Of a stretch of DNA of 64,000 bases, positions 349 through 55,608 are shown one piece after another; within the stretch, counting starts at the first letter, position 1, and every line of letters begins with the position of its first letter. Below the pieces are notes generated by a model. That model was not told the origin of the DNA and ran no database searches. It saw only the letters and a program-made list of their open reading frames with translations. This stretch comes from Planctomycetota bacterium. Its GTDB lineage: Bacteria; Planctomycetota; UBA8742; UBA2392. Location of the stretch: the NCBI GenBank assembly GCA_015075515.1, contig JABTUE010000001.1:1013001-1077000 (forward strand), given 5' to 3'. Position numbers and translations under genes: made by a program.

Positions 349-1182
349 ATGCGCACGGTCAAGGTCAGCCGCATTGCCGACCCGGTACCCGCCATCGGGC
401 TTGGCACCTGGAACATGGGCGACTCACGCGCCACGCGCGCGGCCGAAGCCGCGGCCCTGCGCGCCGGGCTGGACCTTGGCATGAACCTGATTGACACCGC
501 CGAAATGTACGCCGGAGGCGGCGCCGAAGAAGTTGTGGCCGAGGCGATTGCCGGACGCCGCAAGGATGTCTTTCTGGTTACCAAGGTTCTGCCCGGCAAC
601 GCCTCGCGCCAGGGAACCCCGCGTGCCTGCGAGGCCAGCCTGAAGCGCCTGCGCGTGGACGTGATTGACCTGTATCTGCTGCACTGGCCCGGCTCGCACC
701 CCCTGGCCGACACGCTGGCGGCGTTTGAGGAACTGCGCGTGTCAGGCAAGATCCGCCACTGGGGCGTAAGCAACTTTGACCCGGCGGCGATGCGCGAAGT
801 TGAGCGGCAGGTGCCCGGCCGCTGCGCCTGCAACCAGGTGCTGTACAACCTGCAACGACGCGGCATCGAGCACGACCTGCTGCCCTGGTGTGTGGACAAA
901 GGCGTGCTGGTGCAGGCCTATTCGCCGCTGGACCAGGGCAACCTGCGCAAGCCCGCGCAGTTGCTTGCTGTCGCCAAACGCCACAAGGCAACGCCCGAGC
1001 AGATCGCGCTGGCGTGGTCGGTGCGTCTGGCGGGCGTACACGCGATTCCGAAATCCGCAAACCCCGAACGTGTGAAGCAGAACGCCGAGGCCGCCAACAT
1101 CAAGCTGACAGCCGCCGACTTGCGCGAACTGGATGCGGCGTTCGCGCCACCAACAGGCCCGACCCCACTGGAGACCGCGTGA
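349..1182 (+). CDS. Aldo/keto reductase family oxidoreductase
   Basis: ATG at 349 directly after upstream stop. Translation has AKR hallmarks (GLGTWNMG, IDTAEMYAGG, DLYLLHWP, RHWGVSNF) and is 277 aa. Confidence 0.9.
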   Translation: MRTVKVSRIADPVPAIGLGTWNMGDSRATRAAEAAALRAGLDLGMNLIDTAEMYAGGGAEEVVAEAIAGRRKDVFLVTKVLPGNASRQGTPRACEASLKRLRVDVIDLYLLHWPGSHPLADTLAAFEELRVSGKIRHWGVSNFDPAAMREVERQVPGRCACNQVLYNLQRRGIEHDLLPWCVDKGVLVQAYSPLDQGNLRKPAQLLAVAKRHKATPEQIALAWSVRLAGVHAIPKSANPERVKQNAEAANIKLTAADLRELDAAFAPPTGPTPLETA

Positions 1183-2021
1183 ACACGCCGCTGGCGGGCA
1201 AAGTCGCGCTGGTCACTGGCGCGTCGCGCGGTGTGGGGCGCGGCATTGCCCATGAACTGGGGTTGGCCGGGGCCACGGTGTACGTGACCGGCCGGTCCAG
1301 TGGCGACCGCACCACCGAGAACCGGCCCGAGACGATTGAGTCCACGGCCGAGCTGGTCACAAGTTCGGGCGGCAAGGGCATCGCGATTGCCTGCGACCAC
1401 GGCGACGACGCGCAGGTGGCGGCGCTGTTTGCGAAGCTGCCTGACCTTGACCTGCTGGTGAACAACGTCTGGGGCGGGTACGAGAACTACGACCACACCA
1501 CCTTCAGCGACCCGTTCTGGAACCAGCCCCTGGAGCGCTTTGATCGCATGTTCCGCACCGGCCCGCGCGCGCACTTTGTGGCCGCGCGGCTGGCCGTGCC
1601 GCGCATGATCGCGCGCAGGCGCGGGCTGGTTGTGAACATTGCCGCCGGCGACCACGGCCGTTTTCTGGGCAACGTGCCCTATGACCTGGTCAAAAGCATG
1701 TGCTCGCGCATGGCCTTTGGCATGGCGACAAACCTGCGCCCGCACAACGTGGCCGCCGTCGGCGTGTTGCCCGGCTTCACGCGCACCGAACGCGTGACAG
1801 ATGCATTTTCGGGCAACCCGCCGCCGATCACCGAAACGCCGCGTTACACCGGCCGCGTGGTCGCGGCCCTGGCGGCCGACGCGAACATCATGCAGCACAG
1901 CGGCCGGGTGCAGGCCACCGCGGCCTGGGCCAAAGTCTATGGCATCAGGGACATTGACGGCCGCAGCCACGAGCCGTTTGTGCTGCCGCCCGAGTACCCC
2001 GCACCGGCGGACCGGTTCTGA
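1179..2021 (+). CDS. Short-chain dehydrogenase/reductase (SDR) family oxidoreductase
   Basis: GTG start at 1179 overlaps the upstream stop (GTGA). The N-terminus GKVALVTGASRGVGRGIA is the SDR Rossmann TGxxxGxG motif. The annotated longer ORF from 888 overlaps the upstream gene and is rejected. Confidence 0.85.
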   Translation: MNTPLAGKVALVTGASRGVGRGIAHELGLAGATVYVTGRSSGDRTTENRPETIESTAELVTSSGGKGIAIACDHGDDAQVAALFAKLPDLDLLVNNVWGGYENYDHTTFSDPFWNQPLERFDRMFRTGPRAHFVAARLAVPRMIARRRGLVVNIAAGDHGRFLGNVPYDLVKSMCSRMAFGMATNLRPHNVAAVGVLPGFTRTERVTDAFSGNPPPITETPRYTGRVVAALAADANIMQHSGRVQATAAWAKVYGIRDIDGRSHEPFVLPPEYPAPADRF

Positions 2022-2024
2022 CAC

Positions 2025-3557
2025 TTAAGCACCAAGCCCGGCCTGTTGCGCCAGCGGGGCCAGAAACCCGCAACCCTGGTCCAGTGAACGCCGCAGAAAG
2101 TCCAGTGCCCGCCGACGCATGGCGGCAAGCTGCGGCTCGCGCTCGCCGGGGCCGCAAAGTTCCAGAACGTTGCGGTAGTGCGTGGCCTCGATCAATATCG
2201 GCATGGCCAGTTCGGGTGGTGTCGCGGCCAGCGCGCGGTCGGCCTGAAGCAGGGTTTTTCCGGCCTCGGCCCGGCGCCCGCAGTGGCGGGCCAGGGTGCA
2301 GGCCCAGGCGGGCAGGCTGACATTCCACGGCGCCCGGTCCGGGTGCAGAAACGTGCTGCGCTCGATCAGGGCGTTGAACTCGGCCAGAACCGCGGTGTCT
2401 TTGTGCCGGATCGCGCGCAACATCAGGCCCGCGATGGCCGGTTCAACGCGCGCGGTGCTGGTGGCGCCCTTGCGCGCGGCTTCATAGTCGCGCGCGGCGC
2501 GTTCCAGGTGCGCGGGTTCCTGTGTGAACAGGGCGATCCGCACCGCCCAGTCGGCGCGGCTTTCGTTGCGCGACGCGCCCAGGGCAAAACGCTCAAACTC
2601 CAGCGCCCCGGCGAAGTACTGGGCCAGTTGCAGCGCGCGGGATACCTCCGCCGCGGGCAGGCCCAACGCGATCGCCTGGTGCAGGCGCGCCGCGCCCTCG
2701 GCGGGACGGCGCAGCAAAAGCAACTGGCCCCCGTGCATGGCCACCAGCCGCGCCACGGCCGAACGCACCGCGCCGGACGGGGACGGAATGTTTTCGGCCA
2801 GGGCCAGCAGCGCGCGGATCAAACGCTCGGCCTCGGCGCTGCGCCCGTTGTGATCCAGCGCCTGCACCAGTTGCATGGCCTCGGCCAGTGAATCCTCGTC
2901 AAGCCCGTCACCCAAGGTACGGAACAGAACGCGCCGCTGCAGGCCGATCAGGCCGGCCAGGTCGCCAAACCGCCGGGTGTGGGCGGCCTCGACGCGCATG
3001 TGTTCGAGGTCGAGGGCTTCGTCCTGGCACAGCCGGGCCACCTGCTGGGCGGCCTTGCGCAACGACGCGGCGCGGGGTTCGTCTTCGGCGTTCAGGGCCT
3101 GGCGCCAGTCGCGCAGAATGCCGGCGAATACCTCGCGGCTCTGGTCGTTCAGGCGGCGCTTGAGTGCCTCGTGGGCCTCCAGCGCGTCGTGCAGCCGCCG
3201 CAGTGCCTGCTGCGAGGGCCGCCCGGCCAGAGAACCCAGCCGCAGGCGCGCCACGTTGTTCATCGCCTGCACCAGTTCCAGCAGGTTGCCAGCCAGCCGT
3301 TCGTTGCCCGCAGCGGTATCGCTCAGATACATGGCCCCTTCGCCGGCAATCAGCCAGGCCGGGTTCACGCCCAGACCGGCCACCAGCGCCGAACAGAACG
3401 ACGCGGGCACGCGGTTGCCGCGCAGATAGCGGTTGACGTTGGCCGGGCTGGTGCCGGTGCGGCGCGCGATTTCGGCCTGGCTGTGGGCGCCGGCCAGTGT
3501 GCGCAGGCGGGCGCGCAGGCCGGCATCAAGGTCCGTGGCTGGTTTTCGCTTCGGCAT
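2025..3557 (-). CDS. Transcriptional regulator: N-terminal XRE-type HTH plus a long C-terminal alpha-helical (TPR-like) domain; paralog of the 59394..60923 gene
   Basis: 510 aa. The N-terminus SQAEIARRTGTSPANVNRYLRGNRVP...GVNPAWLIAGEG is an HTH_XRE-like motif. The gene is divergent from an AT-rich intergenic region (3558-3676). Confidence 0.75.
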   Translation of the reverse strand: MPKRKPATDLDAGLRARLRTLAGAHSQAEIARRTGTSPANVNRYLRGNRVPASFCSALVAGLGVNPAWLIAGEGAMYLSDTAAGNERLAGNLLELVQAMNNVARLRLGSLAGRPSQQALRRLHDALEAHEALKRRLNDQSREVFAGILRDWRQALNAEDEPRAASLRKAAQQVARLCQDEALDLEHMRVEAAHTRRFGDLAGLIGLQRRVLFRTLGDGLDEDSLAEAMQLVQALDHNGRSAEAERLIRALLALAENIPSPSGAVRSAVARLVAMHGGQLLLLRRPAEGAARLHQAIALGLPAAEVSRALQLAQYFAGALEFERFALGASRNESRADWAVRIALFTQEPAHLERAARDYEAARKGATSTARVEPAIAGLMLRAIRHKDTAVLAEFNALIERSTFLHPDRAPWNVSLPAWACTLARHCGRRAEAGKTLLQADRALAATPPELAMPILIEATHYRNVLELCGPGEREPQLAAMRRRALDFLRRSLDQGCGFLAPLAQQAGLGA

Positions 3558-3676
3558 CGGCGGGTTCTATGTTACGGAACAGTAATGATTGTTGAACAGA
3601 AGTGTTCTTAGAAAATTTCTTTTCAGTTATTCTGGTTCCGGCGGGCCGGGGAACCCGCCCAACCGGAGGACAAACC

Positions 3677-5197
3677 ATGAAAGTCATGCTTCTGCTCGCC
3701 GCGCTGGCCTGCGGCCTGTCGGCCCAGTCCTACACCTGTGTCCGCATCGCCAACGACTACGCGGGCAAGGATGTAAGTGCCACGGGCGTGAGACTGCTGA
3801 ACAATCCGTCCGTGCCCTGGGGTGGCGACCTGGATGAAGGCCACGCCGACGACTACCCGATCGGGTTCACGTTTCAGTTCTATGGCCAGTCCCACGCCAC
3901 GGTGGACATCTGCACCAACGGCTGGGTCAGCTTCAACCCGATTCAGGGCACACTGCCGTACATGCCCGCGTCGCCGCCGGCCACGTTTCCGTCCACCAGC
4001 TATCCCAACGGGTTTGTCGCCGCCGGCTGGCAGGATCTGTGGGGATACGTCATGTCCCAAAGCAGCGGCATGTTCGCCCAGACCGTGGGCACCGCGCCCA
4101 ACCGCGAGTTCCGCGTGCAGTTCAACAACATGACCAAACGCCAGCCGCCGGGCGGCACGATGAGCTTTCTGTGGGTGTTCCGCGAGGCCGACAACAGCAT
4201 CGAAATTCACTACGGCCACATCACCGACGGAACGGTCTTTGCCTGCGGGCTGGAAAGCCCCAGCGGCAACGAAGGCACGGCCTCGGCCGACGGCTGGCTG
4301 CTGGGCACACCGGTTCAGACCGCCTACCGATTTGAGCCCCAGCCCGAAATCGAAGTGGAACGCGCTGCGCAGGCTGTGCCGCACCAGGGAACCGACAACA
4401 TCGGGACGGTCACCGCGGGAACCGCGACAGCCGTGACCTACCGCGTGCGCAACACAGGCGTGGGGGCGCTGACACTGACCGGCGTGAACCTGTCAGGCAT
4501 GGTCAACTGCTCGGTTTCGGCTGGCGGCCTGCCGGGGACGGTTCCGCCGGGTTCCTACGCGGATCTGGACTTGCAGGTTACAGCCGCAGCGACGGGCTTC
4601 TGCTCGTTCCTTGTCAGCATCGGCAACAACGACCTGGACGAATCACCGTTTGCCTTCAGCGTGGACGCCAACGCGGTGCCGACCCCGGCGGCCGAGATTG
4701 AACTGACGTACCAGTCCCTGCCGCGCCAGACGGGCGAGGTGGTGACGCTGGGCGCCTTCGCCGTCGGGCGGGCCCAGGTGATCAGCGTTCGGGTGCATAA
4801 TCCGGGTACCGCCGACCTGCACCTGACCGGCGCGCCGGTGGTGCGGCTTGCCGCCGTCCAGAACTGCGCCGTGACGGTTGCCAAACCGCCGGCGGCCATG
4901 GTGGCGCCCGGCGCGCACACGGATTGTGAACTGGAGTTCACGCCGACGGCGTTCGGGCCGTTCGGTTTTGAGATCGCGCTGGACAGCAACGACAGCGATG
5001 AAACGCCGTATGTGCTGCACTTTGCCGGCTCTGCCGGCGCGGAGAACATTGGCGGATCCCACAAGGGCGGCGGCGGGTGCGTCCTGGATACGACCCGCGG
5101 CGCGGGCTTGCTGCCGCCCTTCCTGCTGCTGGCTGCCGCCCTGCGGCGTGGCAAACGGCGCCGCCGCGATGCGATCATGCCGCGGCCACGGGGCTGA
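3677..5197 (+). CDS. Secreted cell-surface repeat protein (Ig-like / choice-of-anchor-D-like beta-sandwich repeats) with a C-terminal sorting-signal-like tail
   Basis: ATG at 3677 is preceded by GGAGGA (3665-3670). The signal peptide is MKVMLLLAALACGLSAQS. Repeats read ...GVNLSG...SIGNNDLDESPFAFSV and ...LDSNDSDETPYVLHFAGSA. The C-terminus is GGGGCVLD-TTRGAGLLPPFLLLAAALRRGKRRRRD (Gly-rich, hydrophobic helix, basic tail). The longer ORF from 3602 is rejected. Confidence 0.7.
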   Translation: MKVMLLLAALACGLSAQSYTCVRIANDYAGKDVSATGVRLLNNPSVPWGGDLDEGHADDYPIGFTFQFYGQSHATVDICTNGWVSFNPIQGTLPYMPASPPATFPSTSYPNGFVAAGWQDLWGYVMSQSSGMFAQTVGTAPNREFRVQFNNMTKRQPPGGTMSFLWVFREADNSIEIHYGHITDGTVFACGLESPSGNEGTASADGWLLGTPVQTAYRFEPQPEIEVERAAQAVPHQGTDNIGTVTAGTATAVTYRVRNTGVGALTLTGVNLSGMVNCSVSAGGLPGTVPPGSYADLDLQVTAAATGFCSFLVSIGNNDLDESPFAFSVDANAVPTPAAEIELTYQSLPRQTGEVVTLGAFAVGRAQVISVRVHNPGTADLHLTGAPVVRLAAVQNCAVTVAKPPAAMVAPGAHTDCELEFTPTAFGPFGFEIALDSNDSDETPYVLHFAGSAGAENIGGSHKGGGGCVLDTTRGAGLLPPFLLLAAALRRGKRRRRDAIMPRPRG

Positions 5198-6104
5198 TGA
5201 ACTTGTGGCCTCGCTGAGGGCCGCGCTTGGTCACGGTCAGCACTTCAGGCCCGGTTTCGGTCATCAGAATCGTGTGCTCGAACTGGGCGCTCAGCCGGCC
5301 GTCGGCGGTGTAGACCGTCCAGTTGTCGCGACGGTCCAGCACGGTCTTCCAGGTGCCGGCGTTGATCATCGGCTCGATCGTGAAGCACATGCCGGGTTCC
5401 AGAATCTGCTGGCCGTGGTAGGCGTCGGGAAAATGCGGAATGTGCGGCTTCTGGTGAAACACCCGGCCGATGCCGTGGCCCTGGTATTCCTTGACCACCG
5501 AAAAACCGCGCGCCTTGGCGATCGCGCTGATCGCCCGGCCGATCTCGATCACGCGGCTGTAGGGCTTGATCACGTCAATCGCCGCCCACATGCAGTCAAA
5601 GCTGCACTGGGTCAATGCCACGGCCTCGTCGCTGACGGGGCCGACGAACAGGGTTTCGCTCTGGTCGCCGTGCCAGCCCTCGACAATTGTGGTCAGGTCA
5701 AGGTTGATGATATCGCCGTCCTTCAGCCGGTAGTCGCCGGGCACGCCGTGGCACACCACCTGGTTGGGGCTGGTGCACAGGCTGGCCGGAAAGCCGCGAT
5801 AGCCCAGCGTGGCCGGAATATGCCCGCGGCTGGTGGTCCACTGGTGGATCAGCGTGTCAATTTCGCGCGTGGTGATGCCGGCCTTCACATAGTCGCGGAT
5901 GTAGTCCATCAGCTCGGCGTTGACGCGGCAGGCCTTGCGCATGGCGTCGCGTTCGGCGGTGTTGAGAAGCAGCGGGTCCTTGCGCGGGGCGGGCTGGGGC
6001 ACGCCGGCCTCGTTGCCGTGGTGGCACTTTTTGTACTTCTTGCCGCTGCCGCACCAGCAGGGGTCATTGGGGCCGGGCTTGCGGTTGTTGGACTCGTCTT
6101 TCAT
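5175..6104 (-). CDS. map: Type I methionine aminopeptidase with an N-terminal SEC-C zinc-binding motif
   Basis: 309 aa. CWCGSGKKYKKCH is a SEC-C motif. The MetAP core has the metal ligands context (DGDIINLDLT, HGIGRVFHQKP, FTIEPMIN, FEHTILMTE). Confidence 0.9.
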   Translation of the reverse strand: MKDESNNRKPGPNDPCWCGSGKKYKKCHHGNEAGVPQPAPRKDPLLLNTAERDAMRKACRVNAELMDYIRDYVKAGITTREIDTLIHQWTTSRGHIPATLGYRGFPASLCTSPNQVVCHGVPGDYRLKDGDIINLDLTTIVEGWHGDQSETLFVGPVSDEAVALTQCSFDCMWAAIDVIKPYSRVIEIGRAISAIAKARGFSVVKEYQGHGIGRVFHQKPHIPHFPDAYHGQQILEPGMCFTIEPMINAGTWKTVLDRRDNWTVYTADGRLSAQFEHTILMTETGPEVLTVTKRGPQRGHKFISPVAAA

Positions 6105-6187
6105 CCGTGCTGACTTTATCGCGCGGCGGCGCGGGCTTACAGGGGCGGCTCATGGACGCTGGGTCAAACCCGTGCCATCGTGCGGCC

Positions 6188-7291
6188 ATGCGCCAGGCCA
6201 GTTACTGGGAACTTGCCGCCACGCCGCAGCCCGCGCCGCAAAGCCTGCCCGAGACGGTAGACGTTCTGGTCGCGGGCGCGGGGTTCATGGGCCGGTGGCT
6301 GGCGCTGTTTCTGGGGCGGCGCAACCCCGCCCCGCGCGTGCTGGTGGTAGAACGCGACCGCATCGGCTACGGTGCCAGCACGCGCAACGCCGGGTTTCTG
6401 ACCACCGGCCAGATCACCGAAATGTTCGAAGATGCCCGCGACAGCGGCCTGGACGCCGTGCTGGCGACGTTTGCGCGTCGCCGGACAGGGCTGGCGCTGG
6501 TGCGGCAGGAATTTCCGCAGCTTGAGGTGGACGCCTGCGGCAGCACGGATTTTGACCCCGTCAACGACGAAAAACGCGAGTTCGCCCGCCATGTCAACGC
6601 GGCGCTGGGCGAAATCATGTTCGTCGAGCGCCCGGTCAACCTGGGTGGCCGGGCCACCACGGGCTTCTTTCAGGCCCGCGACGGCGGCGTGCACCCGGTG
6701 AAGCTGCTGGAGCTGATCCGGTTGCGCGCCACGGGCGCCACGTTCGCCTTTGGCGTGAACGTGCGGCGGATCGGCCAGGGTGCGGCCCTGTGCGAAGCCG
6801 GCGGCCGGACGCACGAAGTGCGGTACAGACGCGCGTTTGTGTGCACCAACGGCTTTGCCCCTGATCTGGAGCCGGCAAGCCCGGTCGTGCCGGGCCGCGG
6901 CCAGGTGATTGTGACCTCGCCGGTGACAACCACGACCGACCGCACGCTGGGGTATCTGAACGCGGGCTACGACTACTTCCGGTTTGTGGACGGGCGGCTG
7001 CTGATCGGCGGCGGCCGCGACCGCTTTCGCGCGCAGGAAACCACGGCCGAGATTGCCGTAAGCGACGCGCTGCTGGGTCATCTGCGCGCCACGGCCGCGC
7101 GCGTTCTGGGGCATGAACGGTTTGTGGTGGACTGGCACTGGGCCGGCATCATGGGTTTTGTAGGCGGCCGGCATCTGGGCGGCAGCCCGCGCCGCGCCAT
7201 GGACGAAACCACCGAAGCCGTGGCAGGCTTCGGTGGCATGGGTGTGGCGCTGACACCTGTGTTCGCGCGTGAAATCGCGCAGGAGTTTTAG
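6188..7291 (+). CDS. FAD-dependent oxidoreductase (DAO / glycine-D-amino-acid oxidase family)
   Basis: The dinucleotide-binding motif DVLVAGAGFMGRWLA lies near the N-terminus. The start is uncertain (ATG 6188 preferred; ORF opens at 6107). The gene is divergent from map. Confidence 0.8.
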   Translation: MRQASYWELAATPQPAPQSLPETVDVLVAGAGFMGRWLALFLGRRNPAPRVLVVERDRIGYGASTRNAGFLTTGQITEMFEDARDSGLDAVLATFARRRTGLALVRQEFPQLEVDACGSTDFDPVNDEKREFARHVNAALGEIMFVERPVNLGGRATTGFFQARDGGVHPVKLLELIRLRATGATFAFGVNVRRIGQGAALCEAGGRTHEVRYRRAFVCTNGFAPDLEPASPVVPGRGQVIVTSPVTTTTDRTLGYLNAGYDYFRFVDGRLLIGGGRDRFRAQETTAEIAVSDALLGHLRATAARVLGHERFVVDWHWAGIMGFVGGRHLGGSPRRAMDETTEAVAGFGGMGVALTPVFAREIAQEF

Positions 7292-9264
7292 TCCATCACA
7301 ATCACGGACAGCAGGCTGCGGTCGCTGGTGTTCGGTGCCGGGACTGTTCCGGTCATGCCCGGCAGCATCATCGGCGGCGGCGGCGCGGGCTGGTAGGACC
7401 CAGCGCCCGACCCGCCGGACGCCGCGGCGGCCGTGGTTCCGCCGGCCCAGCCCGTCATGGCCGGCAGGCCCCACGCGTTCCACCACGCATAGACATCGTA
7501 GTTCAGTTCGTGCACCACCACGGCCACCTGGTCGCCGCGAACCACCGCGTCATAACCCAGCCAGCCCAGGGTCCGGATCACCATGCCCTGCGGGCAGCCG
7601 GGCGGGGGTGTGCCGCCGGGCAACGAAGAAACCCGGGTCAGCGCAAACGGCTGGCCGGCCTGTCCCGGCGTGAAGTCGTCCCACCTCAGGTTGTGCAGTT
7701 CCAGGCCCCAGCCGACCGGGTTGGCGTACAGCATGTCCACGCGCTTGAGGCCGCCGACCAGACGCGGGTGCACCGAGGGCTGCATCGCCCCCGGGATCGC
7801 CACGTGCGCCACGGTCTGCCATGTCAGGCCGGCGTCGGCGCTGTACTTCAGGTGCACGCCGTCGGTTTTCTCGTAGGCGTAAAACACTTCCATGGCCGCG
7901 CCTGAGCCCAGTACCGCCACGTGCGGGTCAATCGGTGCGACCCGGTCTTCGCGGTCCACTTCACTGTCGCGCCAGGCACCGCCCCAAGGGCGCACGGCGC
8001 AGCGGAACCGCGCCGAATTGATGCGCTGCCCGCCCACCCACTGAAACAGCGAGTAGCCGTAACCCACGACCAGATCGCCGCCGGCGCTGTATTCCAGGTG
8101 CATCAACAGCGGGGTCACGTCGCTGCCCGGGTTGTGCACCACGGTGTTCTGGGTCCAGGCGTAGCCGGTGGGTGTGTTGTTGGCGTCGAACCCGGTGGGC
8201 GCGGCCTCGCACAGACGCAGCGAAGCCGTGCCGCCGCTGCAGCGCCAGTAGAGCACACCCAGCGTGTAGTCCGGGGCAATCGCGATCTGCACCAGGCGTT
8301 GCGCCCCCCAGCCGCCGGAGCTTTCCAGCGTGTGCAGCAGCGGAAAGCTTGCCCCGCGGTCCAGGCTGATCTCGGCCCGGATGTCTCCGGCCTGGCTGTA
8401 GACCACGGCCAGAACGTTGCCGCGCGCGGCGATTTCCTGGTCGCGCCATGAGGCGATGTCGTCGGAATAGCAATCGGCCTGGCCGCCGGTCACGGTCGAA
8501 GTCGCGGCATCCAGTTGCAGCCACTGGCGCCGGCGCTGGCCGTAGCCGATGCCGGTGCCGTCATAGGTGGCCACGCTGTAGCGGTCACCCGAAACGGCAA
8601 TCGCCGGCAGCCCGCAGTACCACGAGTTGCTGCTGAACACCGGGGTCGTGACCATGCCCGGTCTGGTCGGCGGGGCCGCGTGGTTGGGCAGGTTGATGAT
8701 GCTGGAGTTGCCAATGCGCACCCGCAGGCCGATGTTCAACGGGCTCAGGCCCCACCACCGGGGAACCTGCACCAGCAGCACCTGGTCCGTGCTGATACTG
8801 CCGCGAACCGTCACGCGCGAAAAGCCGTCGCCGATTACCTCGACCAGGTTGCCGTTGTAGCTCAGGCTGCTGCCCTCCAGGTGCATGCCCGCGGCCACGA
8901 TGCTTTCGGCGCCCAGTGCCGGCGCCAGCCCGTTGTCGGCCACATGGCCGACCGACAGTTGCGTCAGGCCGAAGTTGCCGGCGCCGCGCGCGATCACGGT
9001 AAACGAAAAATCCTGCCCGGCCGGAGTTTCCATTTCATAGACGCGGTCAAATCCCGACAGGCCAAAGCGGGACAGGCTGACAGAAGCGGAAAGCGTGTCT
9101 GTGGTCGCGGGCGAAACTTCCGACATGCCGGCAGCCACAGTTACGTCTTCCGTGGACCAGAACACGCGCCACGGAGTTGGGGTGATCGTAGGCGGGCCGT
9201 TGAAGTGGCCGCAGCCGGCCACGGCAAGCAGCAGACAGCCAAGCAGGATGGGAATCTTGCGCAT
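7288..9264 (-). CDS. Lipoprotein with BNR/sialidase-like (beta-propeller) repeats
   Basis: Lipobox MRKIPILLGCLLLAVAGC at internal ATG 9264; upstream extension to 9381 is rejected. BNR-like S-x-D-x-G-x-T/S-W/F motifs are present (YSADAGLTWQ, SLDRGASFP). Confidence 0.6.
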   Translation of the reverse strand: MRKIPILLGCLLLAVAGCGHFNGPPTITPTPWRVFWSTEDVTVAAGMSEVSPATTDTLSASVSLSRFGLSGFDRVYEMETPAGQDFSFTVIARGAGNFGLTQLSVGHVADNGLAPALGAESIVAAGMHLEGSSLSYNGNLVEVIGDGFSRVTVRGSISTDQVLLVQVPRWWGLSPLNIGLRVRIGNSSIINLPNHAAPPTRPGMVTTPVFSSNSWYCGLPAIAVSGDRYSVATYDGTGIGYGQRRRQWLQLDAATSTVTGGQADCYSDDIASWRDQEIAARGNVLAVVYSQAGDIRAEISLDRGASFPLLHTLESSGGWGAQRLVQIAIAPDYTLGVLYWRCSGGTASLRLCEAAPTGFDANNTPTGYAWTQNTVVHNPGSDVTPLLMHLEYSAGGDLVVGYGYSLFQWVGGQRINSARFRCAVRPWGGAWRDSEVDREDRVAPIDPHVAVLGSGAAMEVFYAYEKTDGVHLKYSADAGLTWQTVAHVAIPGAMQPSVHPRLVGGLKRVDMLYANPVGWGLELHNLRWDDFTPGQAGQPFALTRVSSLPGGTPPPGCPQGMVIRTLGWLGYDAVVRGDQVAVVVHELNYDVYAWWNAWGLPAMTGWAGGTTAAAASGGSGAGSYQPAPPPPMMLPGMTGTVPAPNTSDRSLLSVIVMD

Positions 9265-9382
9265 GAGGATGCTCCCGAGAACACACCGAGGGGTCGGGGC
9301 GGGGTGATGGCTTTGCAAGCCGCGCAAACACTGTGCCACAGGGCCTGAAAGGGCGGTTTGGGCACCGATTCCGGTAACCACA

Positions 9383-10705
9383 TTGACGGATAGAGAAAAC
9401 CTTACACAGCCGCGCTATCCTGCGGCTATGACCATGCCACGGCACGTACCCCCGGCCGAAGCGGTGGCCGAGATTTCCAGCGGCCAGCGCGTGTTTATCG
9501 GCAGCGGCGCCGCCGAGCCGGAAAGCCTGGTGCAGGCGCTGACCGCCCGCGCGCGTGAACTGCGCGACGTGAACCTGCTGCACATCCTTACCCTGGGCAG
9601 TGCCCCCTATGCCGCGCCCGAACACGCCGCCAGTTTCCGCCACACGGCGTTTTTCATCGGCCCCAACGTGCGCCAGGCGGTGCAGGACGGCCGTGCCGAT
9701 TTTGTGCCGATCTTTCTGAGCGAAATTCCCGCGCTGTTCGAGCGCCGCATGACACCGGACTGGGCGCTGGTGCAGCTCAGCCCGCCCGACCGCCACGGCT
9801 GGTGCACCGTGGGTGTCAGCGCCGATGTCGTGATCGGGGCGCTGCGGCATGCACAGCGCGTGGTGGCTGAAATCAATCCGCGCATGCCGCGCACGCACGG
9901 CGATACGGTGATTCACCTGTCGCGCCTGCACGCGACCGTGCAGGTTGAGCGCGAACTACCCGAATTGAAGCCCGAACCGATAGACGAGGCCAGCGCCGCG
10001 ATCGGCCGCCATGTGGCGGGCATGGTGGACGACGGTGACTGTCTTCAGCTCGGCATCGGCACCATTCCCAACGCCGTGCTGCGCGAACTGCGCGGGCACC
10101 ATCACCTGGGCCTGCACACCGAAATGATGTCCGACGGTGTTGTCGAGCTGGCGCGCTGCGGGGCGCTGGATTGCTCGCGCAAAAGCTACCGGCCCGGCAA
10201 GGCGATCTGCAGCTTCGTGATGGGCACGCGGCGGTTGTACGACTTTGTGGACGACAACCCGTTTGTGAACCTGCTGGGCAGCGATTTTGTGAACGACCCG
10301 GCGATCATCGCCCGCAACGACAACCTGGTGGCCGTCAACAGCGCGCTTCAGATAGACCTGACCGGCCAGGTCAACGCCGACAGTGTTGGCGTGCGGCCCT
10401 ACAGCGGCATCGGCGGCCAGGTGGATTTCATCCGCGGCGCGGCGCGTTCGCGCGGCGGCAAGCCGATCATCGCCCTGCCCAGCACCGCCCGCGGCGGCGA
10501 AGTCAGCCGAATTGTGCCCACGCTGCTGGAGGGCGCGGGCGTTGTGACCTCGCGCGGCGACGTGCGCTTTGTGGTCACCGAATACGGCGTGGCCGACCTG
10601 TACGCCAAAGGCACGCGCCAGCGCGCCCGGGCGCTGCTCGAAATCGCCCACCCGAAGTTCCGCCCCGACCTTGAACGCCGCGCCCTGGAGTTGAAACTGC
10701 TGTGA
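9383..10705 (+). CDS. Acetyl-CoA hydrolase/transferase family protein (4-hydroxybutyrate CoA-transferase-like)
   Basis: 440 aa with family-typical segments (GIGTIPNAVL, DLTGQVNADS, GIGGQVDF). Alternative starts lie at 9428 and 9434. Confidence 0.85.
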   Translation: MTDRENLTQPRYPAAMTMPRHVPPAEAVAEISSGQRVFIGSGAAEPESLVQALTARARELRDVNLLHILTLGSAPYAAPEHAASFRHTAFFIGPNVRQAVQDGRADFVPIFLSEIPALFERRMTPDWALVQLSPPDRHGWCTVGVSADVVIGALRHAQRVVAEINPRMPRTHGDTVIHLSRLHATVQVERELPELKPEPIDEASAAIGRHVAGMVDDGDCLQLGIGTIPNAVLRELRGHHHLGLHTEMMSDGVVELARCGALDCSRKSYRPGKAICSFVMGTRRLYDFVDDNPFVNLLGSDFVNDPAIIARNDNLVAVNSALQIDLTGQVNADSVGVRPYSGIGGQVDFIRGAARSRGGKPIIALPSTARGGEVSRIVPTLLEGAGVVTSRGDVRFVVTEYGVADLYAKGTRQRARALLEIAHPKFRPDLERRALELKLL

Positions 10706-22430: not shown

Positions 22431-22507
22431 GCACCCGTAGCTCAATTGGATAGAGCATCTGACTACGGATCAGAAGGTTGCACGTTCGACTCGTGCCGGG
22501 TGTACCA
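22431..22507 (+). tRNA. tRNA-Arg (anticodon ACG)
   Basis: 77 nt with a cloverleaf: acceptor GCACCCG/CGGGTGT, D-stem GCTC/GAGC, anticodon stem TCTGA/TCAGA with loop CTACGGA, T-stem GCACG/CGTGC with loop TTCGACT, 3' ACCA. A terminator hairpin follows at 22513-22547. Confidence 0.85.
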
Positions 22508-22557
22508 GCCAAAAAGCCGCCTTGGAAGCTACTTCCAAGGCGGCTGACGTTTCTGGC
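22463..22557. repeat. attL-like direct repeat: tRNA-Arg 3' half from the anticodon loop plus about 50 bp downstream including the tRNA terminator hairpin; an imperfect extension continues to about 22630
   Basis: A near-identical copy (few mismatches) lies at 42547-42641. The downstream approximately 70 bp are also similar and contain GGACAAGGTT motifs. Confidence 0.75.
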
Positions 22558-22740
22558 AGTGATTGCCAGTTAGGCAAGAGGGACAAGGTTGGGGACAAGG
22601 TCTGCGGTATTCCGGCGACGGCTGCCTGCGGCACGCGCCTTTCCGGCAGCACAGGCAGTCTGAAGCCTGCTCAGAATTCAACCAATGCAGTGCAGACAGC
22701 AGCTTCGGGCAGAAAACCGGGCCAAAACGCGTCTTTGGTG

Positions 22741-25700
22741 TTATCGACCAACAAGCGCCATCCAACAGACCAAGTGAATGTGCTCTTCGTGCAGCACATC
22801 CAGTGGTTTGGGGCGCTCATAGGGCTGCAAGCCAAGCTCCTCGACTACTTCGGCTAGTCGTTTGGCGGCTTCTTGCGGGCTCTCCTCGTGTGACCGTATT
22901 GCTTCCTGAATAGGGCGTTGAATCTTGTGGCCGTGAGGTGCCTGCAAGCGCGCCACGAGGCTTGCCGTGTACTCGGGCGTCCAGTCGGGGGCGGCATGGC
23001 TGCGGACAATGTCGGCCGCTCTCTGCATGGACGGCGGAATTTTTGGTTGAAGGTTTGCGGGGTCGGTCAACTCATTCCACTTTGCCAGAATGTGCTGCCG
23101 AGCTATGCGCCAAGCCTCGTAGGCCTGCTGCCGTAGCGCCTCAGTCAGCGTCGTGGGGGCGTCCTCCGGGCAGCGGATGCGACGCAGGCTGGTCAACACG
23201 CGGTCATCTACCAGCGTTCCGTCAGCGGTGACGAAACGGAACAAAGGTTCCTTGCCCACGCGCGCGCAAAAGAAGAAACCAGAGGGACCCTTGGTCGCCA
23301 GGGCCGAGCCTGCGGTCCAAGGGAAGTCAAGAATCGCAGTCTTGTGCCGCGGGTTCTCCAGCGCCTTGCGGAGTTCCTGCCGGAACTCTTCGCCGCTCTC
23401 CGGCGCTTCCCGCTCTCCGCCCAGTTCAAGCAGCGAAGCGTCGCCCTTCTTGATGCGCTCTAGTTCGTCCTTCACGCCGAGCACCACGTCGCCGGTCTCG
23501 GTTCCGGGCAAAATCTCGGCCTCGACACCGACCGTTCGTGCGGCCACCTTCACCTTGTCCTGGATGCGGTCGTGCAGCCTGAGCAACCGGTCCAGTTCAT
23601 CGTCCGGCAGGAAACAGTAGATGTAGTTGTCTTTGTGCTTGCTGCCAATGCGGTCAATTCGCCCATGGCGCTGTACCAAGCGCATCGGGTTCCAAGGCAG
23701 GTCGTAGTTGATCAAATTCCGGCACTGCTGAAGGTTCATGCCCTCTGCCAGAACGTCCGTCGTAACCAGAATGTCGAACCGGTCATCGCGTTTGTCTGCC
23801 GGTGCGTCCATGGACTCAGGTGCGAAACCGAACACTGCCTCCGTACCTTCGGCACTTGACACCTTGGCGACACGCCCCCGGAAGTGCTTGAGCCTTGCGT
23901 TGGTCGCAAGCTCATTCTCCAGAAAGTCAAAGATCCAGTTCATCGTGTCCGCGAAGTAGGTGAAGATCAGAACCTTGCGGTTGTCGCGCTGCGCTTCCGG
24001 AGTGGTGCCGTCCTTGTCCGCGTGTGCGGCTATCTGCTCCAACGCCTTGACCAATGATTTGAGTTTGGGATCCTGTTCAGCCGTCACTTTCTCTACGCGC
24101 TTGTGGAAGTTGCGCAGAATGGCCAAGTCACACTCTACGGCTTCGCGAAGATCGTTGACCTTGTAGGCGCTGGAGTTCTCCAGATCGCCCTCCCGTTCAA
24201 GCTCGTCCATCGCCTCTTCCGCCTCGTCCGTGTCCGCGGAAGGCAGCTCCAGAACCGCTTCCAGGGCCTTCGTTGTCGCCACCTTGCCTTTGCCAAGCAA
24301 CTGCAGAAATGTCTCGTGGTGGCGGATCATCCTCTGCACGGTCTTGCGAAAAGCCTCGATCGACGATTCAAACCGTTTGAGCATTCCAGAGCGGACCAGA
24401 CCCACCAGAACCACCTCGCTCTGCTCGATGTCGCCGTCTTTGCGAAACGCCGATGGCTGATAGCGCGCCAGGCGCAACTCGGGCTCGCCTTCTTCGGGCA
24501 TCACCCGCCGCTCAAACTCGGCAAAGAAGCCGGGCAGGAGCGCGTCCAGCCTGTAGCCCAGTTTGTCTACATGCGGCTTGGGAAACTCGATCTGGATCTC
24601 GCTGCCGTCGGGCAAGCGGATGCGGTCGTGTGGGTAGTACTTCTTCACGAAGTGCCGCGTGCGGCGCACCACCACGCGGTCCAGCAGTTCGAACAACAGG
24701 TCGGGTGTCAGGTCGTCCGGGTCCGTGCGCGAGGCCTGCTTGAACAGATCGCGCATGCTGCGGATGCCGGCCTCGGCAAAAGCCGCATCCTGCTTGATGA
24801 AGAATTCCAGCAGGTAGTACAGGTCCCACACCGAGTTGTTGACCGGCGTGGCCGTCAGCATCACCAGCCGTTTGGGCGGGTCGCCGCGCAGCAGCTTGCG
24901 CAAGGCCTTGCTGCGGTCGGCGTCGGGGTTGCGCACGCCGTGAGCTTCGTCCACTACCACCATGGCGTAGTCTGAGGCATCTACGTCGCGCTTGCCCTGT
25001 GCAATCTCTTCGAAACTGCGCACTTCCACCCGCAGGTCGGTGCGCGCCATGAAGCGCGCCCATGAGCCGTCGCGCAAAGCCGCCGGCGCCACCAGCAGCA
25101 CGCGCTGATGCGACTGGCGGGCATCCTCGATCAGCTTGGCGGCGATGAACGACTTGCCCAGGCCCACGCTGTCGGCGATCAGCACGCCGCCGCGCTGCGC
25201 CAGAATCTTCCGGGCGCGCTCAACGCCGTCGTTCTGGAAGTTGGTCAGGTGGATGCGCGACAGGCCGCCGTGTTCTTCGTTGAGTTGCTCACCGTAGCGC
25301 TCATACAACGCGCGCATGTACACCAGCCAGGGCGAAACCGGCGCGAAACGATCTTCGTACAAGCGCGCCAGGTCAAAGTCTTCAGAGCGCTCCCACAGGT
25401 TGTCGAACCACTGGCGCGCCTTGTTGTAGGGCTCCGTGTCCTTGCGCGAGACGTTGAGTTCAAGGTTCTTGCGCAGGCCGGCGTAGGTGAAGTTGCTGGA
25501 GCCGACGAAGACGCCTTCGCCGTCGGACAAGATAAACGCCTTGGCGTGCAGAAACGGCGGGAACTTGAAGCGGCGCACGCGCAGATTGCCACCGCGTTGC
25601 AGATCTATCAGGCGCTTGACGACGCCCTCGGCCTGGGCATCGAACTCGGTCAGGTTGCGGTCCAGCCGCAAACCCTCTTCCTGCCGCTCCAGTTGCGCCG

Positions 25701-25980
25701 CAAGCTGCTTTTCGAGGGCTTTTTCGCCCTTGGGGCCGCCCAGCTTGACCGGCAACGTGCGGCCTTCAAAGGGCGGCTCGGCACCCAGCAGCAGCCGGAT
25801 GCCGGACAAACGCTCAAGCTCTTCCACCAGCAGCGAAAAGCCGCCCAGGTTGAAGTACCCCGTTGCCACGTCCAGCGACGGCGGCGTCTTGAGCTTGGCC
25901 ACGCTGCCCTGAATGGCGGCCTTGAGCGCCTCCTCCATCGTGCCGTTGTCGAGATTGTCCGCGATGTCCCGCAGCGTCAT
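22741..25980 (-). CDS. Phospholipase-D (HKD) nuclease domain fused to an SNF2-family helicase
   Basis: 1079 aa. The N-terminal HKD motif is FLHAKAFILSDGEGVFVGSSNFTYAGL. The SNF2 core has Walker A LIADSVGLGKS, DEAH box VVVDEAHGVRN, and helicase-C LVTTDVLAEGMNLQQ...QRHGRIDRIG. Confidence 0.85.
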   Translation of the reverse strand: MTLRDIADNLDNGTMEEALKAAIQGSVAKLKTPPSLDVATGYFNLGGFSLLVEELERLSGIRLLLGAEPPFEGRTLPVKLGGPKGEKALEKQLAAQLERQEEGLRLDRNLTEFDAQAEGVVKRLIDLQRGGNLRVRRFKFPPFLHAKAFILSDGEGVFVGSSNFTYAGLRKNLELNVSRKDTEPYNKARQWFDNLWERSEDFDLARLYEDRFAPVSPWLVYMRALYERYGEQLNEEHGGLSRIHLTNFQNDGVERARKILAQRGGVLIADSVGLGKSFIAAKLIEDARQSHQRVLLVAPAALRDGSWARFMARTDLRVEVRSFEEIAQGKRDVDASDYAMVVVDEAHGVRNPDADRSKALRKLLRGDPPKRLVMLTATPVNNSVWDLYYLLEFFIKQDAAFAEAGIRSMRDLFKQASRTDPDDLTPDLLFELLDRVVVRRTRHFVKKYYPHDRIRLPDGSEIQIEFPKPHVDKLGYRLDALLPGFFAEFERRVMPEEGEPELRLARYQPSAFRKDGDIEQSEVVLVGLVRSGMLKRFESSIEAFRKTVQRMIRHHETFLQLLGKGKVATTKALEAVLELPSADTDEAEEAMDELEREGDLENSSAYKVNDLREAVECDLAILRNFHKRVEKVTAEQDPKLKSLVKALEQIAAHADKDGTTPEAQRDNRKVLIFTYFADTMNWIFDFLENELATNARLKHFRGRVAKVSSAEGTEAVFGFAPESMDAPADKRDDRFDILVTTDVLAEGMNLQQCRNLINYDLPWNPMRLVQRHGRIDRIGSKHKDNYIYCFLPDDELDRLLRLHDRIQDKVKVAARTVGVEAEILPGTETGDVVLGVKDELERIKKGDASLLELGGEREAPESGEEFRQELRKALENPRHKTAILDFPWTAGSALATKGPSGFFFCARVGKEPLFRFVTADGTLVDDRVLTSLRRIRCPEDAPTTLTEALRQQAYEAWRIARQHILAKWNELTDPANLQPKIPPSMQRAADIVRSHAAPDWTPEYTASLVARLQAPHGHKIQRPIQEAIRSHEESPQEAAKRLAEVVEELGLQPYERPKPLDVLHEEHIHLVCWMALVGR

Positions 25981-26239
25981 TTACGTTCCCCTTTGACCCA
26001 GGGCCGGATGAACTGGCCTTGATGTCATTTATAGCGACCAGCGCGACATTGAATACCTTGACGCCGTTCCAGGATTGCCTTGGCGGTTTCACCAAAGTTT
26101 TGCTCATCCTGTTTCCGACACTTCGGGATGGAGGTTACGGGCAAAGATTCAACCACTGTCTGGCCCTCGTTGTGCTCCATCGGCCAATCGTGTATGTCGG
26201 CCTCAACTGCTACCATGGAACGAGGCAAAGGAGCATGCG

Positions 26240-27223
26240 GTGGCGCGCTCAGACCTGATTGTGAAACTTGTTCGTGCCGGGGTGGCACGCGATGATGAGC
26301 GCTTTCGAAGGGCGGTTGAGGCCCTGATCGTCGAGGAAGAAGCCCGGCAACACCACACGGTGGCAAAGCAGTTGGCCGAAGCCCTTTCGACGCAAGGCCC
26401 CTCCGTTGCGCAGCTCACCGCTCCCAAGCTTCCGTCAACGGGTCTGGTGTTTGAGCGAGCGCCCCGGCGAACGCTGTCGGAGCTTGTGCTGCCCAAGACT
26501 ACCCGTCAGGCCGTTCAAGAACTCGTGGAAGAGCAGCACCGGGGCGACTTGCTGCGAAACCATGGCCTTGAGCCCCGCCATCGGCTGGTGCTGGTTGGTC
26601 CGCCGGGGAACGGCAAGACGACGCTGGCTGAGGCCATCGCAGATGCACTGCTTGTGCCGCTGCTGATGGTCCGTTACGACGCCATCATCAGCAGCTTCCT
26701 TGGCGAAACCGCCGTTCGCCTGCGCCAGTTGTTCGATCAAGTGCGCACTCGCCCGTGTGTTCTGTTCTTTGACGAGTTCGACGCGCTGGGCAAAGAGCGC
26801 GGCGACGAACACGAAACCGGCGAGATTAAGCGCGTGGTCAACACCCTCCTGATGCAGATTGACGACCTGCCAAGCCATGTTGTCGTCGTCGCCGCGACCA
26901 ATCACCCTGAACTTCTGGACCGTGCCGCTTGGCGTCGCTTTCAGCTTCGCCTGGAGCTTCCGTCGCCGACACAGGCGCAACTTGCGCACTGGTTTCAGAC
27001 GCTTTCGGACCGTCTGGGCCAGCCGCTGGGGCTGGCACCGAGGACACTTGCCGCTAAACTTCCCGGCATAAGTTTCGCAGAAGCGGAAGAGTTTGCGCAG
27101 GATGTTCGCCGCCGCCAGGTGCTTGGCATCCCCGATGCCGATCTCAAGCGGATTGTGAACGATCGGCTGGCAATCTGGACAGCACGCTACATCCAGCGCT
27201 CGAAGTCCAGCACGCGGCGATAA
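26240..27223 (+). CDS. AAA+ ATPase (IetA-like)
   Basis: GTG start at 26240 sits 6 nt after AAGGAG (26228-26233). Walker A is GPPGNGKTTLAEA, Walker B is CVLFFDEFDALG, with sensor-1/arginine-finger context VAATNHPELLDRAAWRRF. The longer ORF from 26075 lacks an in-frame ATG. Confidence 0.75.
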   Translation: MARSDLIVKLVRAGVARDDERFRRAVEALIVEEEARQHHTVAKQLAEALSTQGPSVAQLTAPKLPSTGLVFERAPRRTLSELVLPKTTRQAVQELVEEQHRGDLLRNHGLEPRHRLVLVGPPGNGKTTLAEAIADALLVPLLMVRYDAIISSFLGETAVRLRQLFDQVRTRPCVLFFDEFDALGKERGDEHETGEIKRVVNTLLMQIDDLPSHVVVVAATNHPELLDRAAWRRFQLRLELPSPTQAQLAHWFQTLSDRLGQPLGLAPRTLAAKLPGISFAEAEEFAQDVRRRQVLGIPDADLKRIVNDRLAIWTARYIQRSKSSTRR

Positions 27224-27254
27224 ACAATGGCGCTAACACTGCTGTGGAGTTTCC

Positions 27255-29900: not shown

Positions 29901-29952
29901 GCAGCGGGATCGGCGTCATGCACGCTCATCTTCTCCCGGCGGGCGGGTTGGG

Positions 29953-34005: not shown

Positions 34006-34255
34006 TTGCTGCTCCGTGCGGTTCCGTCAGCGCCCCGGACTGCCCGGGCACGCCCGATACGTGTTCTTCCGATGGCGGGTTTCGTCCTGGCAACGCTCGC
34101 CCCGAATGTCCGGCGCGACTTTAGCGAGCCGCGCGACATGAGGCGAGACTTGGCAGCATTGGGCCGCGTGTGGCTGCCTGCGGCACCCTGTCGCATCAGG
34201 GGACAGGGACCGGCCCCTTTTTTGGGTGTCGGAAGTGTCGTACCGGCGGAGGCGC

Positions 34256-34726
34256 TCAGGCCTTGTGGGACTTCAGGGAGCCTTCGGAGGGGGTCTGGCC
34301 TTTCTTGCCCCAGTAGCCAAGCACCTTGTCCAGCAGGAGCTTCAGGCGTTCGCCCCGGAATGACGCCTTGGCCTTGGCGTCTTTGGGGTGCGGGCGCGGG
34401 TAGATGAACTTGGCGTCCACGACGGTCAGCAAGCCCACGTGCAGGTAGGTCGGATACTTGATGATGTCGGCTTCGCCCAGCTTGATGTATTCGGGCGTGG
34501 GGACTTCCTTGCCGCTGGCGTGCGGGAAGCGCGAAAGCGGGCAGAGTGCCCAGCCGTCGTTGCGTTGCTCAACAACCATCAACAGGTGGCCGGTGTCCTG
34601 ACAGCCCTGCGGAATGTTGCCGTCTTTGCAGAGTTGCTCGCCCGTGCAGTCCATCGTCGCCAGCACGGCGTCGTTGTACGCCTTGTCAGGCTTAACGCGA
34701 ACCACCATGCCCGGCTCAATGGACAT
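34256..34726 (-). CDS. Hypothetical protein (island cargo)
   Basis: 156 aa with non-repetitive composition and several Cys (CTGEQLCKDGNIPQGCQD). No recognised domain. Confidence 0.5.
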   Translation of the reverse strand: MSIEPGMVVRVKPDKAYNDAVLATMDCTGEQLCKDGNIPQGCQDTGHLLMVVEQRNDGWALCPLSRFPHASGKEVPTPEYIKLGEADIIKYPTYLHVGLLTVVDAKFIYPRPHPKDAKAKASFRGERLKLLLDKVLGYWGKKGQTPSEGSLKSHKA

Positions 34727-34734
34727 TCACGTTC

Positions 34735-35361: not shown

Positions 35362-35584
35362 TGGCCCCTCCGGCAGGGCGAATTGCTATATCCTGCACAA
35401 GCAACGCGCGCAAGGTTCAGCGGCGCGGGGTAAGTATCGGCAACCTGCGGGCCGAACTTTACACTTTTGATGTTTCGCCTAGCGGTCACTCAGAAACATC
35501 ATGGCGTCGGCATCGGCTGATTGCCAGCCCCAAGCCCATACCCATCAACAGCCGACGGACACGCTTTGTTCCCCGTGCGCCGGG

Positions 35585-39640: not shown

Positions 39641-39643
39641 GGC

Positions 39644-55559: not shown

Positions 55560-55608
55560 GCGCCACAAGCCGCTTTGCACGGCGCGGCGCGCGGGTTAGC
55601 TTGGGCAC

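Follow-up and report, generated by a model that had tools for sequence, protein, structure and literature searches.

Does a regulator gene that stands back to back with the gene of a surface protein control that neighbour, or is the pairing incidental? This question was raised by a 64,000-nucleotide stretch of contig JABTUE010000001.1 (Planctomycetota bacterium, assembly GCA_015075515.1; hereafter the window), in which a first, sequence-only reading had noticed two open reading frames (ORFs), at 2025-3557 and 59394-60923, and had taken them for paralogous members of a family of local regulators of surface structures. We named the two proteins RegA and RegB and analysed their sequences, predicted folds, gene neighbourhoods and intergenic spacers together with those of their relatives. 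They were found to belong to a multi-copy family whose members mostly lie divergent from their upstream gene, and this gene frequently encodes a protein with a cysteine-containing C-terminal tail. We consider it likely that each is a local transcription factor which is dedicated to an envelope gene, is probably autoregulated and would bind a palindrome in the divergent spacer.

Two paralogous regulators and their divergent partners

Both regulator ORFs were retrieved in the window, and no third family copy was detected there by tblastn. Pairwise alignment bore out the proposed paralogy: BLASTP aligned the two proteins at 42% identity across RegA residues 8-257 (E 5e-44), i.e. well past the N-terminal helix-turn-helix (HTH) domain that they had been said to share. 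In the family alignment, identity between them amounted to 62% in the HTH, 37% over residues 76-140 and 36% over residues 141-260, and fell beyond residue 260 to 18% (261-400) and 15% (401-510). Despite these diverged C-terminal halves, RegA and RegB can both be aligned over their full length with the same other members of the family: RegA at 38% over 492 amino acids (aa) with family member L005, RegB at 34% with L005 (489 aa) and L043 (497 aa).

RegA passed the cut-off of Pfam HTH_3 (PF01381; 26.9 bits vs 23), and no Pfam or NCBIfam match was obtained in either regulator outside the HTH. The family profile also matched the 434 repressor weakly (E 0.017-0.02). An AlphaFold2 (AF2) model of RegA built on a 40-member alignment (predicted local distance difference test, pLDDT, 88; predicted template modelling score 0.74) placed HTH helices at residues 6-24, 27-34, 38-46, 52-62 and 66-71, with pLDDT 84-93 over residues 11-70. 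They are followed by two long helices (83-109 and 115-156) and then by about 17 paired helices, so that the long helical C-terminal domain described from sequence is predicted to be a superhelix resembling tetratricopeptide repeats (TPR). The solved structures nearest to this superhelix are MalT domain III, Rap, NprR, PlcR and AimR, and the best structural matches of RegA include RapH, phage Rap, PlcR, AimR and NprR. A Foldseek search of the model against the PDB gave nothing at E<=0.001, generic TPR matches alone being returned; a sequence-profile search of the PDB with the family likewise yielded, for the sensor part, only designed or generic TPR proteins.

Conservation along the protein is uneven. 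Residues R43, W68, L69, G72 and G74 of the HTH and L93, R120 and L122 of the following hairpin are invariant across the family, and the mean majority fraction is 0.69 in the HTH, 0.68 over residues 76-140 and down to 0.37 in the TPR part. The hairpin (consensus LAGNLLELVEAMxAVARMRLGSLxGKHHLKVLRELNDAL), which lies within helices 83-109 and 115-156, is the least confident part of the model (pLDDT 56-64) and may be a shared partner or dimer interface. Within the HTH, the start of the recognition helix varies between paralogs and its V-x-R-Y scaffold is fixed.

Start codons initially assigned were revised, the ORFs themselves being right; that of the glycosyltransferase gene facing regB was set at 59329. 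For RegB, TTG 59430 is most likely the start and not ATG 59394, because the latter falls within a sigma-70-like -10 box and the family alignment begins at the position equivalent to 59430. An NCBI protein from a metagenome-assembled genome (MAG) identical to RegB (P0040), labelled helix-turn-helix transcriptional regulator, starts further downstream at GTG 59478 (481 aa), which deletes the first conserved helix of the HTH domain, whereas TTG 59430 also agrees with the predicted promoter. For the gene divergent from regA, ATG 3677 rather than GTG 3602 is most likely the start; it gives the signal peptide MKVMLLLAALACGLSAQ.

The partner of RegA proved to be the secreted Ig-repeat protein that had been reported from the sequence, with its Gly-rich, hydrophobic and RRGKRRRR tail. 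It passed NCBIfam NF012200 over two stretches (54.7 bits, cut-off 45) and matched Pfam PF22544 (46.8 bits, 4e-12). In an AF2 model built from six database homologs, the immunoglobulin-like domains (aa 220-455) had pLDDT >85 and the N-terminal 220 aa, which form a domain common to a subfamily of partners, pLDDT <50. The tail reads GGGGC468...LLPPFLLLAAAL-RRGKRRRR; neither of the two alignments of the protein (A4, A5) shows any variation at G464, G465, G467 or C468, and R494 and R497 are invariant among its closer homologs (A5). MYXO-CTERM, JDVT-CTERM and Synerg-CTERM have been described as tripartite Cys-containing sorting signals, which CPBP-family myxosortases were proposed to process (Haft, bioRxiv 10.1101/2023.06.07.544157; mBio 2025, PMC11980579). 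The window tail itself matched no NCBIfam model, including TIGR03901 or related models, even at E<=10, and no CPBP-family PF02517 myxosortase was found among the 42 window genes scanned. Among the partner tails of related loci, four of nine passed a Cys-type sorting-signal cut-off, e.g. MYXO-CTERM (30.0 vs 20), Synerg-CTERM (30.4 vs 22.5) and also GC_trans_RRR. In one locus (L018, 5072-7864, minus strand) the partner ORF holds a complete internal GGGGGC / transmembrane / RRRK tail and then continues for about 280 residues, which may reflect the fusion of two genes, a MAG frameshift or a gene-caller artefact.

RegB is divergent from a membrane family-2 glycosyltransferase (GT2), so that each regulator faces an envelope-related gene, as the sequence-only reading had it. 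A Pfam Glyco_tranf_2_3 score of 63.7 bits indicates general GT2 membership; the protein is far below the equivalog cut-offs of PgaC (64.7 bits vs 422) and BcsA (54.8 vs 992). RegB sits in a block of secreted or envelope-type genes (52456-63919) that includes two signal-peptide proteins with no confident Pfam match (52456-54597 and 55609-57795) and a Peptidase_MA_2 protein (54597-55559). The gene convergent on regB overlaps it by 4 bp. Its product is a secreted protein of 999 aa that contains several TPR repeats and one stretch weakly resembling Peptidase_MA_2, below the threshold; a RegB ortholog (L090) likewise has a downstream convergent gene overlapping it by 4 bp. The features of both gene pairs are listed in Table 1.

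Table 1. Features of the RegA and RegB gene pairs (window coordinates)
Feature	Position	Strand	Description
RegA	2025-3557	-	510 aa; XRE-type HTH, conserved helical hairpin and TPR-like superhelix
RegA TPR-like sensor superhelix (predicted)	2043-3080	-	aa 160-505; strong divergence between paralogs
RegA conserved helical hairpin	3138-3332	-	aa 76-140; from conservation and AF2 model
RegA HTH domain	3333-3512	-	aa 16-75; recognition helix ..TSPANVNRY..; Pfam HTH_3/HTH_31 aa 16-69
RegA divergent spacer	3558-3676		119 bp, 49.6% GC; partly conserved in three orthologous loci
Candidate RegA operator TTAC-N6-GTAA	3572-3585		14 bp upstream of regA ATG, 91 bp upstream of surface-gene ATG
Secreted surface protein	3677-5197	+	506 aa; signal peptide, unclassified N-terminal domain, two Ig-like domains, Cys-containing tail
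Two Ig-like (choice-of-anchor D / HYDIN-VesB) domains	4385-5011	+	aa 237-321 and 355-445; NF012200, PF22544
Tripartite sorting-signal-like tail	5066-5167	+	GGGGC (C468), hydrophobic segment, RRGKRRRR
Membrane GT2 (PgaC / cellulose-synthase-like)	57821-59329	-	divergent partner of RegB; start placed at 59329
RegB divergent spacer	59330-59429		100 bp, 55% GC; sigma-70-like promoter 59368-59395 (+)
RegB inverted repeat TTACGTTGTTGCA / TGCGAAAACGTAA	59400-59443		13-nt arms, 85% complementary; candidate operator, weakly supported
RegB	59430-60923	+	497 aa from TTG 59430; RegA paralog; recognition helix ..EVVTNVHRY..

A planctomycete family often paired with envelope genes

A word-indexed search returned 39 homologs, all of about 500 aa, and those named were assigned to Planctomycetes or Planctomycetaceae. 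An exhaustive profile search extended the family to at least 266 representatives (50% identity clusters) at E<=1e-30, the 150 best of which are almost all 450-545 aa long. Keeping one genome per GTDB species, we confirmed 162 relatives and retained 80 loci for the analysis of gene context; these come from MAGs labelled Planctomycetota or Planctomycetaceae, with one exception labelled 'uncultured bacterium'. Single genomes carry up to at least seven loci (e.g. JADJRK010000001.1 and HKST-UBA88). Judging by its named members, the family appears to be restricted to Planctomycetota and to be heavily expanded in a lineage-specific manner. Database names of its members are generic, and no publication on it was found in the literature on planctomycete surface-protein regulation, MYXO-CTERM or Gram-negative RRNPP; as far as the libraries and literature searched show, it is unnamed and undescribed.

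Genes of all loci were called with a caller based on GC content at third codon positions (GC3), which reproduced the window genes well. Family copies were located by a profile hidden Markov model, giving 92 copies, 90 of them with a called upstream gene. From this gene, 80 of the 90 are divergent (binomial p 1e-14). A tail in which a Gly-rich, Cys-containing stretch precedes a hydrophobic helix and a group of Arg residues (GGGGC, helix, RRRR, i.e. MYXO-CTERM-like) was present in 50/90 upstream neighbours vs 39/867 other genes (odds ratio 26.5, p 3e-34), an approximately 12-fold enrichment over the roughly 4.5% found elsewhere. All tail-bearing neighbours with a fully called 5' end begin with a signal peptide. 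The sequence-only reading was to be refuted if other family members lacked a consistent association with surface genes; the counts did not refute it. HYDIN/VesB Ig domains (34), GEVED (15) and FG-GAP (11) were found among the 72 divergent neighbours. In the window, the neighbour of RegA is the only Cys-tail protein among 44 genes.

The pairing is also retained among orthologs. Regulator clusters were defined by single linkage at 62% identity (at 45% nearly all merge). Neighbours belong to the same cluster in 60 of 165 pairs drawn within a regulator cluster vs 176 of 3840 drawn across clusters, and 13 of the 14 surface-linked regulator clusters listed are fully concordant in neighbour cluster. 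Orthologs sharing 63% and 50% identity with RegA are likewise divergent from a partner some 500 aa long, which has 54% and 47-48% identity with the surface protein of the window, though the flanking genes differ. L090, the only RegB ortholog examined (48% identity), has retained the divergent GT2.

In L053, L054 and L078, [partner][regulator] modules stand in tandem. With the partner on the minus strand followed by the regulator on the plus strand, they extend over 946-9503 (L053), 492-9515 (L054) and 487-9515 (L078), and a similar arrangement was noted in L055 (4042-9479). Partners are alike in size within a pair (879 and 878 aa; 1006 and 894 aa), and therefore the two-gene unit appears to have been duplicated as a whole.

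The largest regulator cluster (helix LVSTVNRY; L016, L019, L022, L028, L035, L045, L013/L037/L039) does not adjoin surface genes. Its neighbours are a gene resembling S-adenosylmethionine-dependent methyltransferases or a TPR gene, and its spacers carry a conserved element of their own, GCGCATGTGCAATACTGCGTACTCGCACA / TTGCGCATTCTGCTTTCGCACA. This cluster may be a housekeeping or ancestral branch of the family.

Candidate operators and the readings of the pair

Both divergent spacers are, as first reported, AT-rich relative to the window, whose mean GC is 66.5%. Many family spacers carry a palindrome near the regulator start codon. In order to relate these palindromes to the regulators, recognition-helix classes were set by the hmmalign columns equivalent to RegA residues 35-44. 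Class [VP]ANV[NS]RY, which includes RegA, has TTAC-N6-GTAA in 4/5 spacers vs 0/72 others (Fisher p 3.7e-6), and class RNN[VI][SC]RY has TGTAYY-N6-8-KACR at most 150 bp upstream in 21/26 spacers vs 0/51 others (Fisher p 1.6e-14), both p-values being inflated as related loci were counted as independent. TTAC-N6-GTAA occurs six times in 1.36 Mb of loci, and its TTAC half is invariant in four orthologous spacers. Regulators of the RNN class are distributed over at least seven paralog clusters, and 9 of the 11 strict-consensus sites of this class end 30-39 bp before the regulator ATG. This covariation between helix class and upstream palindrome is comparative evidence that the palindromes may be bound sequence-specifically.

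RegA's 4+4 palindrome surfaced only through the cross-locus comparison: an inverted-repeat finder gave no repeat of 10 nt or more in the RegA spacer, and a sigma-70 scan gave no promoter-like site there. The same scan found one such site in the RegB spacer (59368-59395, plus strand), and the RegB inverted repeat lies just downstream of its predicted -10 box and spans the RegB start. An 8-mer common to both spacers, GGTTCTAT (3563-3570 and 59422-59429), was considered as a shared operator and rejected; it has opposite orientations relative to the regulators and is not conserved in the orthologous spacers of RegA, and two 100-bp regions may well have 8 nt in common by chance.

Paralogy, fold, divergent pairing with its conservation, and the covariation between helix and palindrome are shown by the present analysis. 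Regulation by the family is inferred because the recognition helix covaries with the candidate operator, and DNA binding, the sign of the regulation and the ligand are likewise inferred. In the reading that we favour, the XRE-type HTH, probably as a dimer, would bind a short palindromic site in the AT-rich sequence that separates the regulator gene from its divergent partner, and would thereby control the partner gene and probably also the regulator's own promoter. The fast-diverging C-terminal TPR superhelix would, from its fold, be the signal-sensing module, and the hairpin between HTH and TPR would form a common dimerisation or output interface. Each paralog would serve its own partner, i.e. 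RegA the secreted Ig-repeat Cys-tail protein and RegB the membrane GT2; as each member stands head-to-head with its own target gene, the surface proteins are probably controlled separately. Family and surface-protein partners would have multiplied together as two-gene modules, so as to give a set of individually switchable envelope components.

Several observations weigh against this reading. At the candidate operators, the GTAA half of the RegA palindrome is degenerate (one or two mismatches) in the three closest orthologs, the class of RegA spans only three independent lineages, the covariation p-values carry the inflation already mentioned, and the palindromes could be part of a shared promoter architecture instead of operators. 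The candidate operator of RegB is one inverted repeat only, which is not obviously conserved in L090, and RegB itself scores 21.7 bits with HTH_3, just under the Pfam cut-off of 23. About 40% of the members adjoin genes that do not look envelope-related (methyltransferase, inositol monophosphatase, aconitase-like, thioredoxin-like); the elements of the sequence-only proposal that were put to the test were all supported, with this part of the family as a caveat. Finally, all members derive from uncultured MAGs and metagenomes, and the GC3-based gene calls include some errors (e.g. L018, L068, L079).

One further observation against it, namely that several paralog clusters in one genome share helix and palindrome type, favours cross-talk over strictly private regulation. 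Paralogs with the same helix might bind the same palindrome at many modules and so form a hierarchical or competitive network, e.g. for mutually exclusive expression of alternative surface proteins. At least seven paralog clusters share RNNVSRY and a TGTAYC..GATACA-type site, some of them within one genome; however, spacer and flanking bases differ between clusters, which could confer specificity, and one-to-one gene adjacency is preserved. We regard such a network as rather unlikely, although it is compatible with dedicated local regulation and would refine rather than replace it.

A post-transcriptional role appears improbable. Here the TPR part would act as a cytoplasmic chaperone, adaptor or sensor of the partner, e.g. 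by binding the partner's Arg-rich cytoplasmic tail or what stays in the membrane once the sorting signal is cleaved, and the HTH would close a feedback loop by making transcription depend on how far the partner is exported or sorted. Peptides and the termini of proteins are typical ligands of TPR domains, the partners share a conserved cytoplasm-facing Arg-rich tail, and the TPR part diverges between paralogs in step with the partners. Yet regulators of tail-less partners (the GT2 of RegB, methyltransferases, inositol monophosphatase) retain the full TPR. An equally improbable variant makes the regulator a private feedback sensor, whose diversified TPR would read the export or sorting state of the partner and whose HTH would adjust the transcription of that one gene. 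The signal may be the Arg-rich cytoplasmic remnant left by a myxosortase-like cleavage, or the unsorted precursor. The joint duplication and diversification of regulator and surface protein would thereby be explained and, if the variant is true, peptide sensing of the RRNPP kind would have a Gram-negative counterpart, with a fragment of the partner's own sorting signal serving as the signal peptide.

Quorum sensing of the RRNPP type, in which the TPR would bind a re-imported secreted peptide (cf. PlcR/PapR, NprR/NprX, Rap/Phr and AimR/AimP) and the surface gene would be a quorum-controlled output, finds support in the domain order (XRE HTH, then TPR) and in the presence of RapH, phage Rap, PlcR, AimR and NprR among the best structural matches. 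These matches are to a generic fold, equally good scores being obtained with MalT and with TPR proteins of eukaryotes, and no RRNPP-specific sequence family was matched, the HTH alone being recognised. RRNPP systems have been described in Firmicutes and in phages of these, whereas the named members of this family are all Planctomycetota; the proteins also exceed PlcR, Rgg and AimR in length by 100-200 aa. No small pro-peptide gene adjoins RegA or RegB: the 100-200 bp family spacers hold no such ORF, and the downstream gene is mostly convergent, a few tens of bp off or overlapping (a distance of 3 bp at RegA and an overlap of 4 bp at RegB). As no pro-peptide gene fits, canonical RRNPP peptide signalling is quite improbable.

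Incidental adjacency, i.e. ordinary global or unrelated XRE factors lying by chance beside numerous Cys-tail proteins, could be argued from the frequency of tails in the loci (89/1047 called genes) and from the roughly 40% of regulators with other kinds of neighbour, but we hold it to be most improbable because the tail is enriched at the divergent upstream position and orthologous clusters retain the partner type across genomes while flanks change, and it sits badly with the 80/90 divergent copies, with tandem duplication of the pair as a unit and with RegA's neighbour being the sole tail-bearing gene of the window.

Other window features and comparison with known systems

Two further regions of the window were noted. 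Behind a tRNA-Arg(ACG) gene (22431-22507) the GC content is reduced over about 20 kb (64.1% vs 67.6%; 22431-42245), and an excisionase-like gene of the HTH_17 type (39644-39877) and a gene for a tyrosine integrase (41013-42245) close this stretch. Its cargo comprises an SNF2-helicase/PLD fusion (22741-25980), an S8 subtilase (27387-29900), a 1350-aa Eco57I-like N6 methylase (29953-34005) and a DUF5681 protein, and the stretch looks like an integrated island with restriction or defence-type genes. Next, a formate-dehydrogenase alpha-like gene (42735-45545, minus strand) consists of two same-frame ORFs split by a single TGA (44430-44432), in the context ..SCAAT-[TGA]-HFPTEQALVKSFGAGVMSNS... This TGA is probably a selenocysteine codon, because its context resembles the selenocysteine site of FdhF-type enzymes. 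A NuoF-like gene (45582-47093) and 2Fe-2S/4Fe-4S modules adjoin it.

Planctomycetota envelopes are unusual and protein-rich, and very little is known about their regulation. The family described here is tied to a specific cargo, Cys-tail MYXO-CTERM-like surface proteins, which we did not find described for this phylum in the literature searched, and an operator is predicted for each of two helix classes, TTAC-N6-GTAA for RegA and a TGTAYC-N6-GATACA-like site for RNNVSRY. If the logic of one regulator per surface protein holds, it would offer a handle on adhesin or coat-protein switching in uncultured wastewater and soil planctomycetes, as well as a set of apparently orthogonal HTH-operator pairs. 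The comparative-genomics result is solid and testable; it would add a new principle only if the feedback-sensor reading were true.

Like MYXO-CTERM, Synerg-CTERM and JDVT-CTERM, the partner tail stands at the very C-terminus of a protein with a signal peptide and combines a Gly-rich motif, in which a Cys is invariant, with a hydrophobic helix and a cluster of Arg; unlike these signals, the window tail matches no model and has no CPBP protease among the window genes scanned. Planctomycetota are absent from the main text of the Haft paper, and we came across no dedicated divergent regulators there (PMC11980579; bioRxiv 10.1101/2023.06.07.544157).

Among regulators, the family resembles RRNPP proteins (PlcR, NprR, Rgg, PrgX and AimR; Rap lacks the HTH) in having an XRE HTH followed by a TPR sensor domain. 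It differs from them by the missing adjacent pro-peptide gene and sequence-family membership past the HTH, by a length of about 500 aa that includes an additional hairpin matching the HTH in conservation, and by its occurrence in Planctomycetota, where a genome may carry many copies and each has a surface-protein gene as its partner. The TPR fold of RegA resembles MalT domain III, but Pfam TPR_MalT (PF17874) matched neither RegA nor RegB, and the family has neither the STAND NTPase module nor the C-terminal LuxR-type HTH of MalT, its own HTH being N-terminal and of XRE type. As in phage 434 and lambda cI, the HTH is of HTH_3 type and palindromes lie in the regulator's own promoter region; unlike in these repressors, a helical sensor of about 430 aa replaces the small dimerisation or peptidase domain, and the genes lie on the chromosome in multiple copies and in linkage with envelope genes. 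The architecture resembles an RRNPP- or MalT-type TPR sensor joined to a phage-repressor-type HTH.

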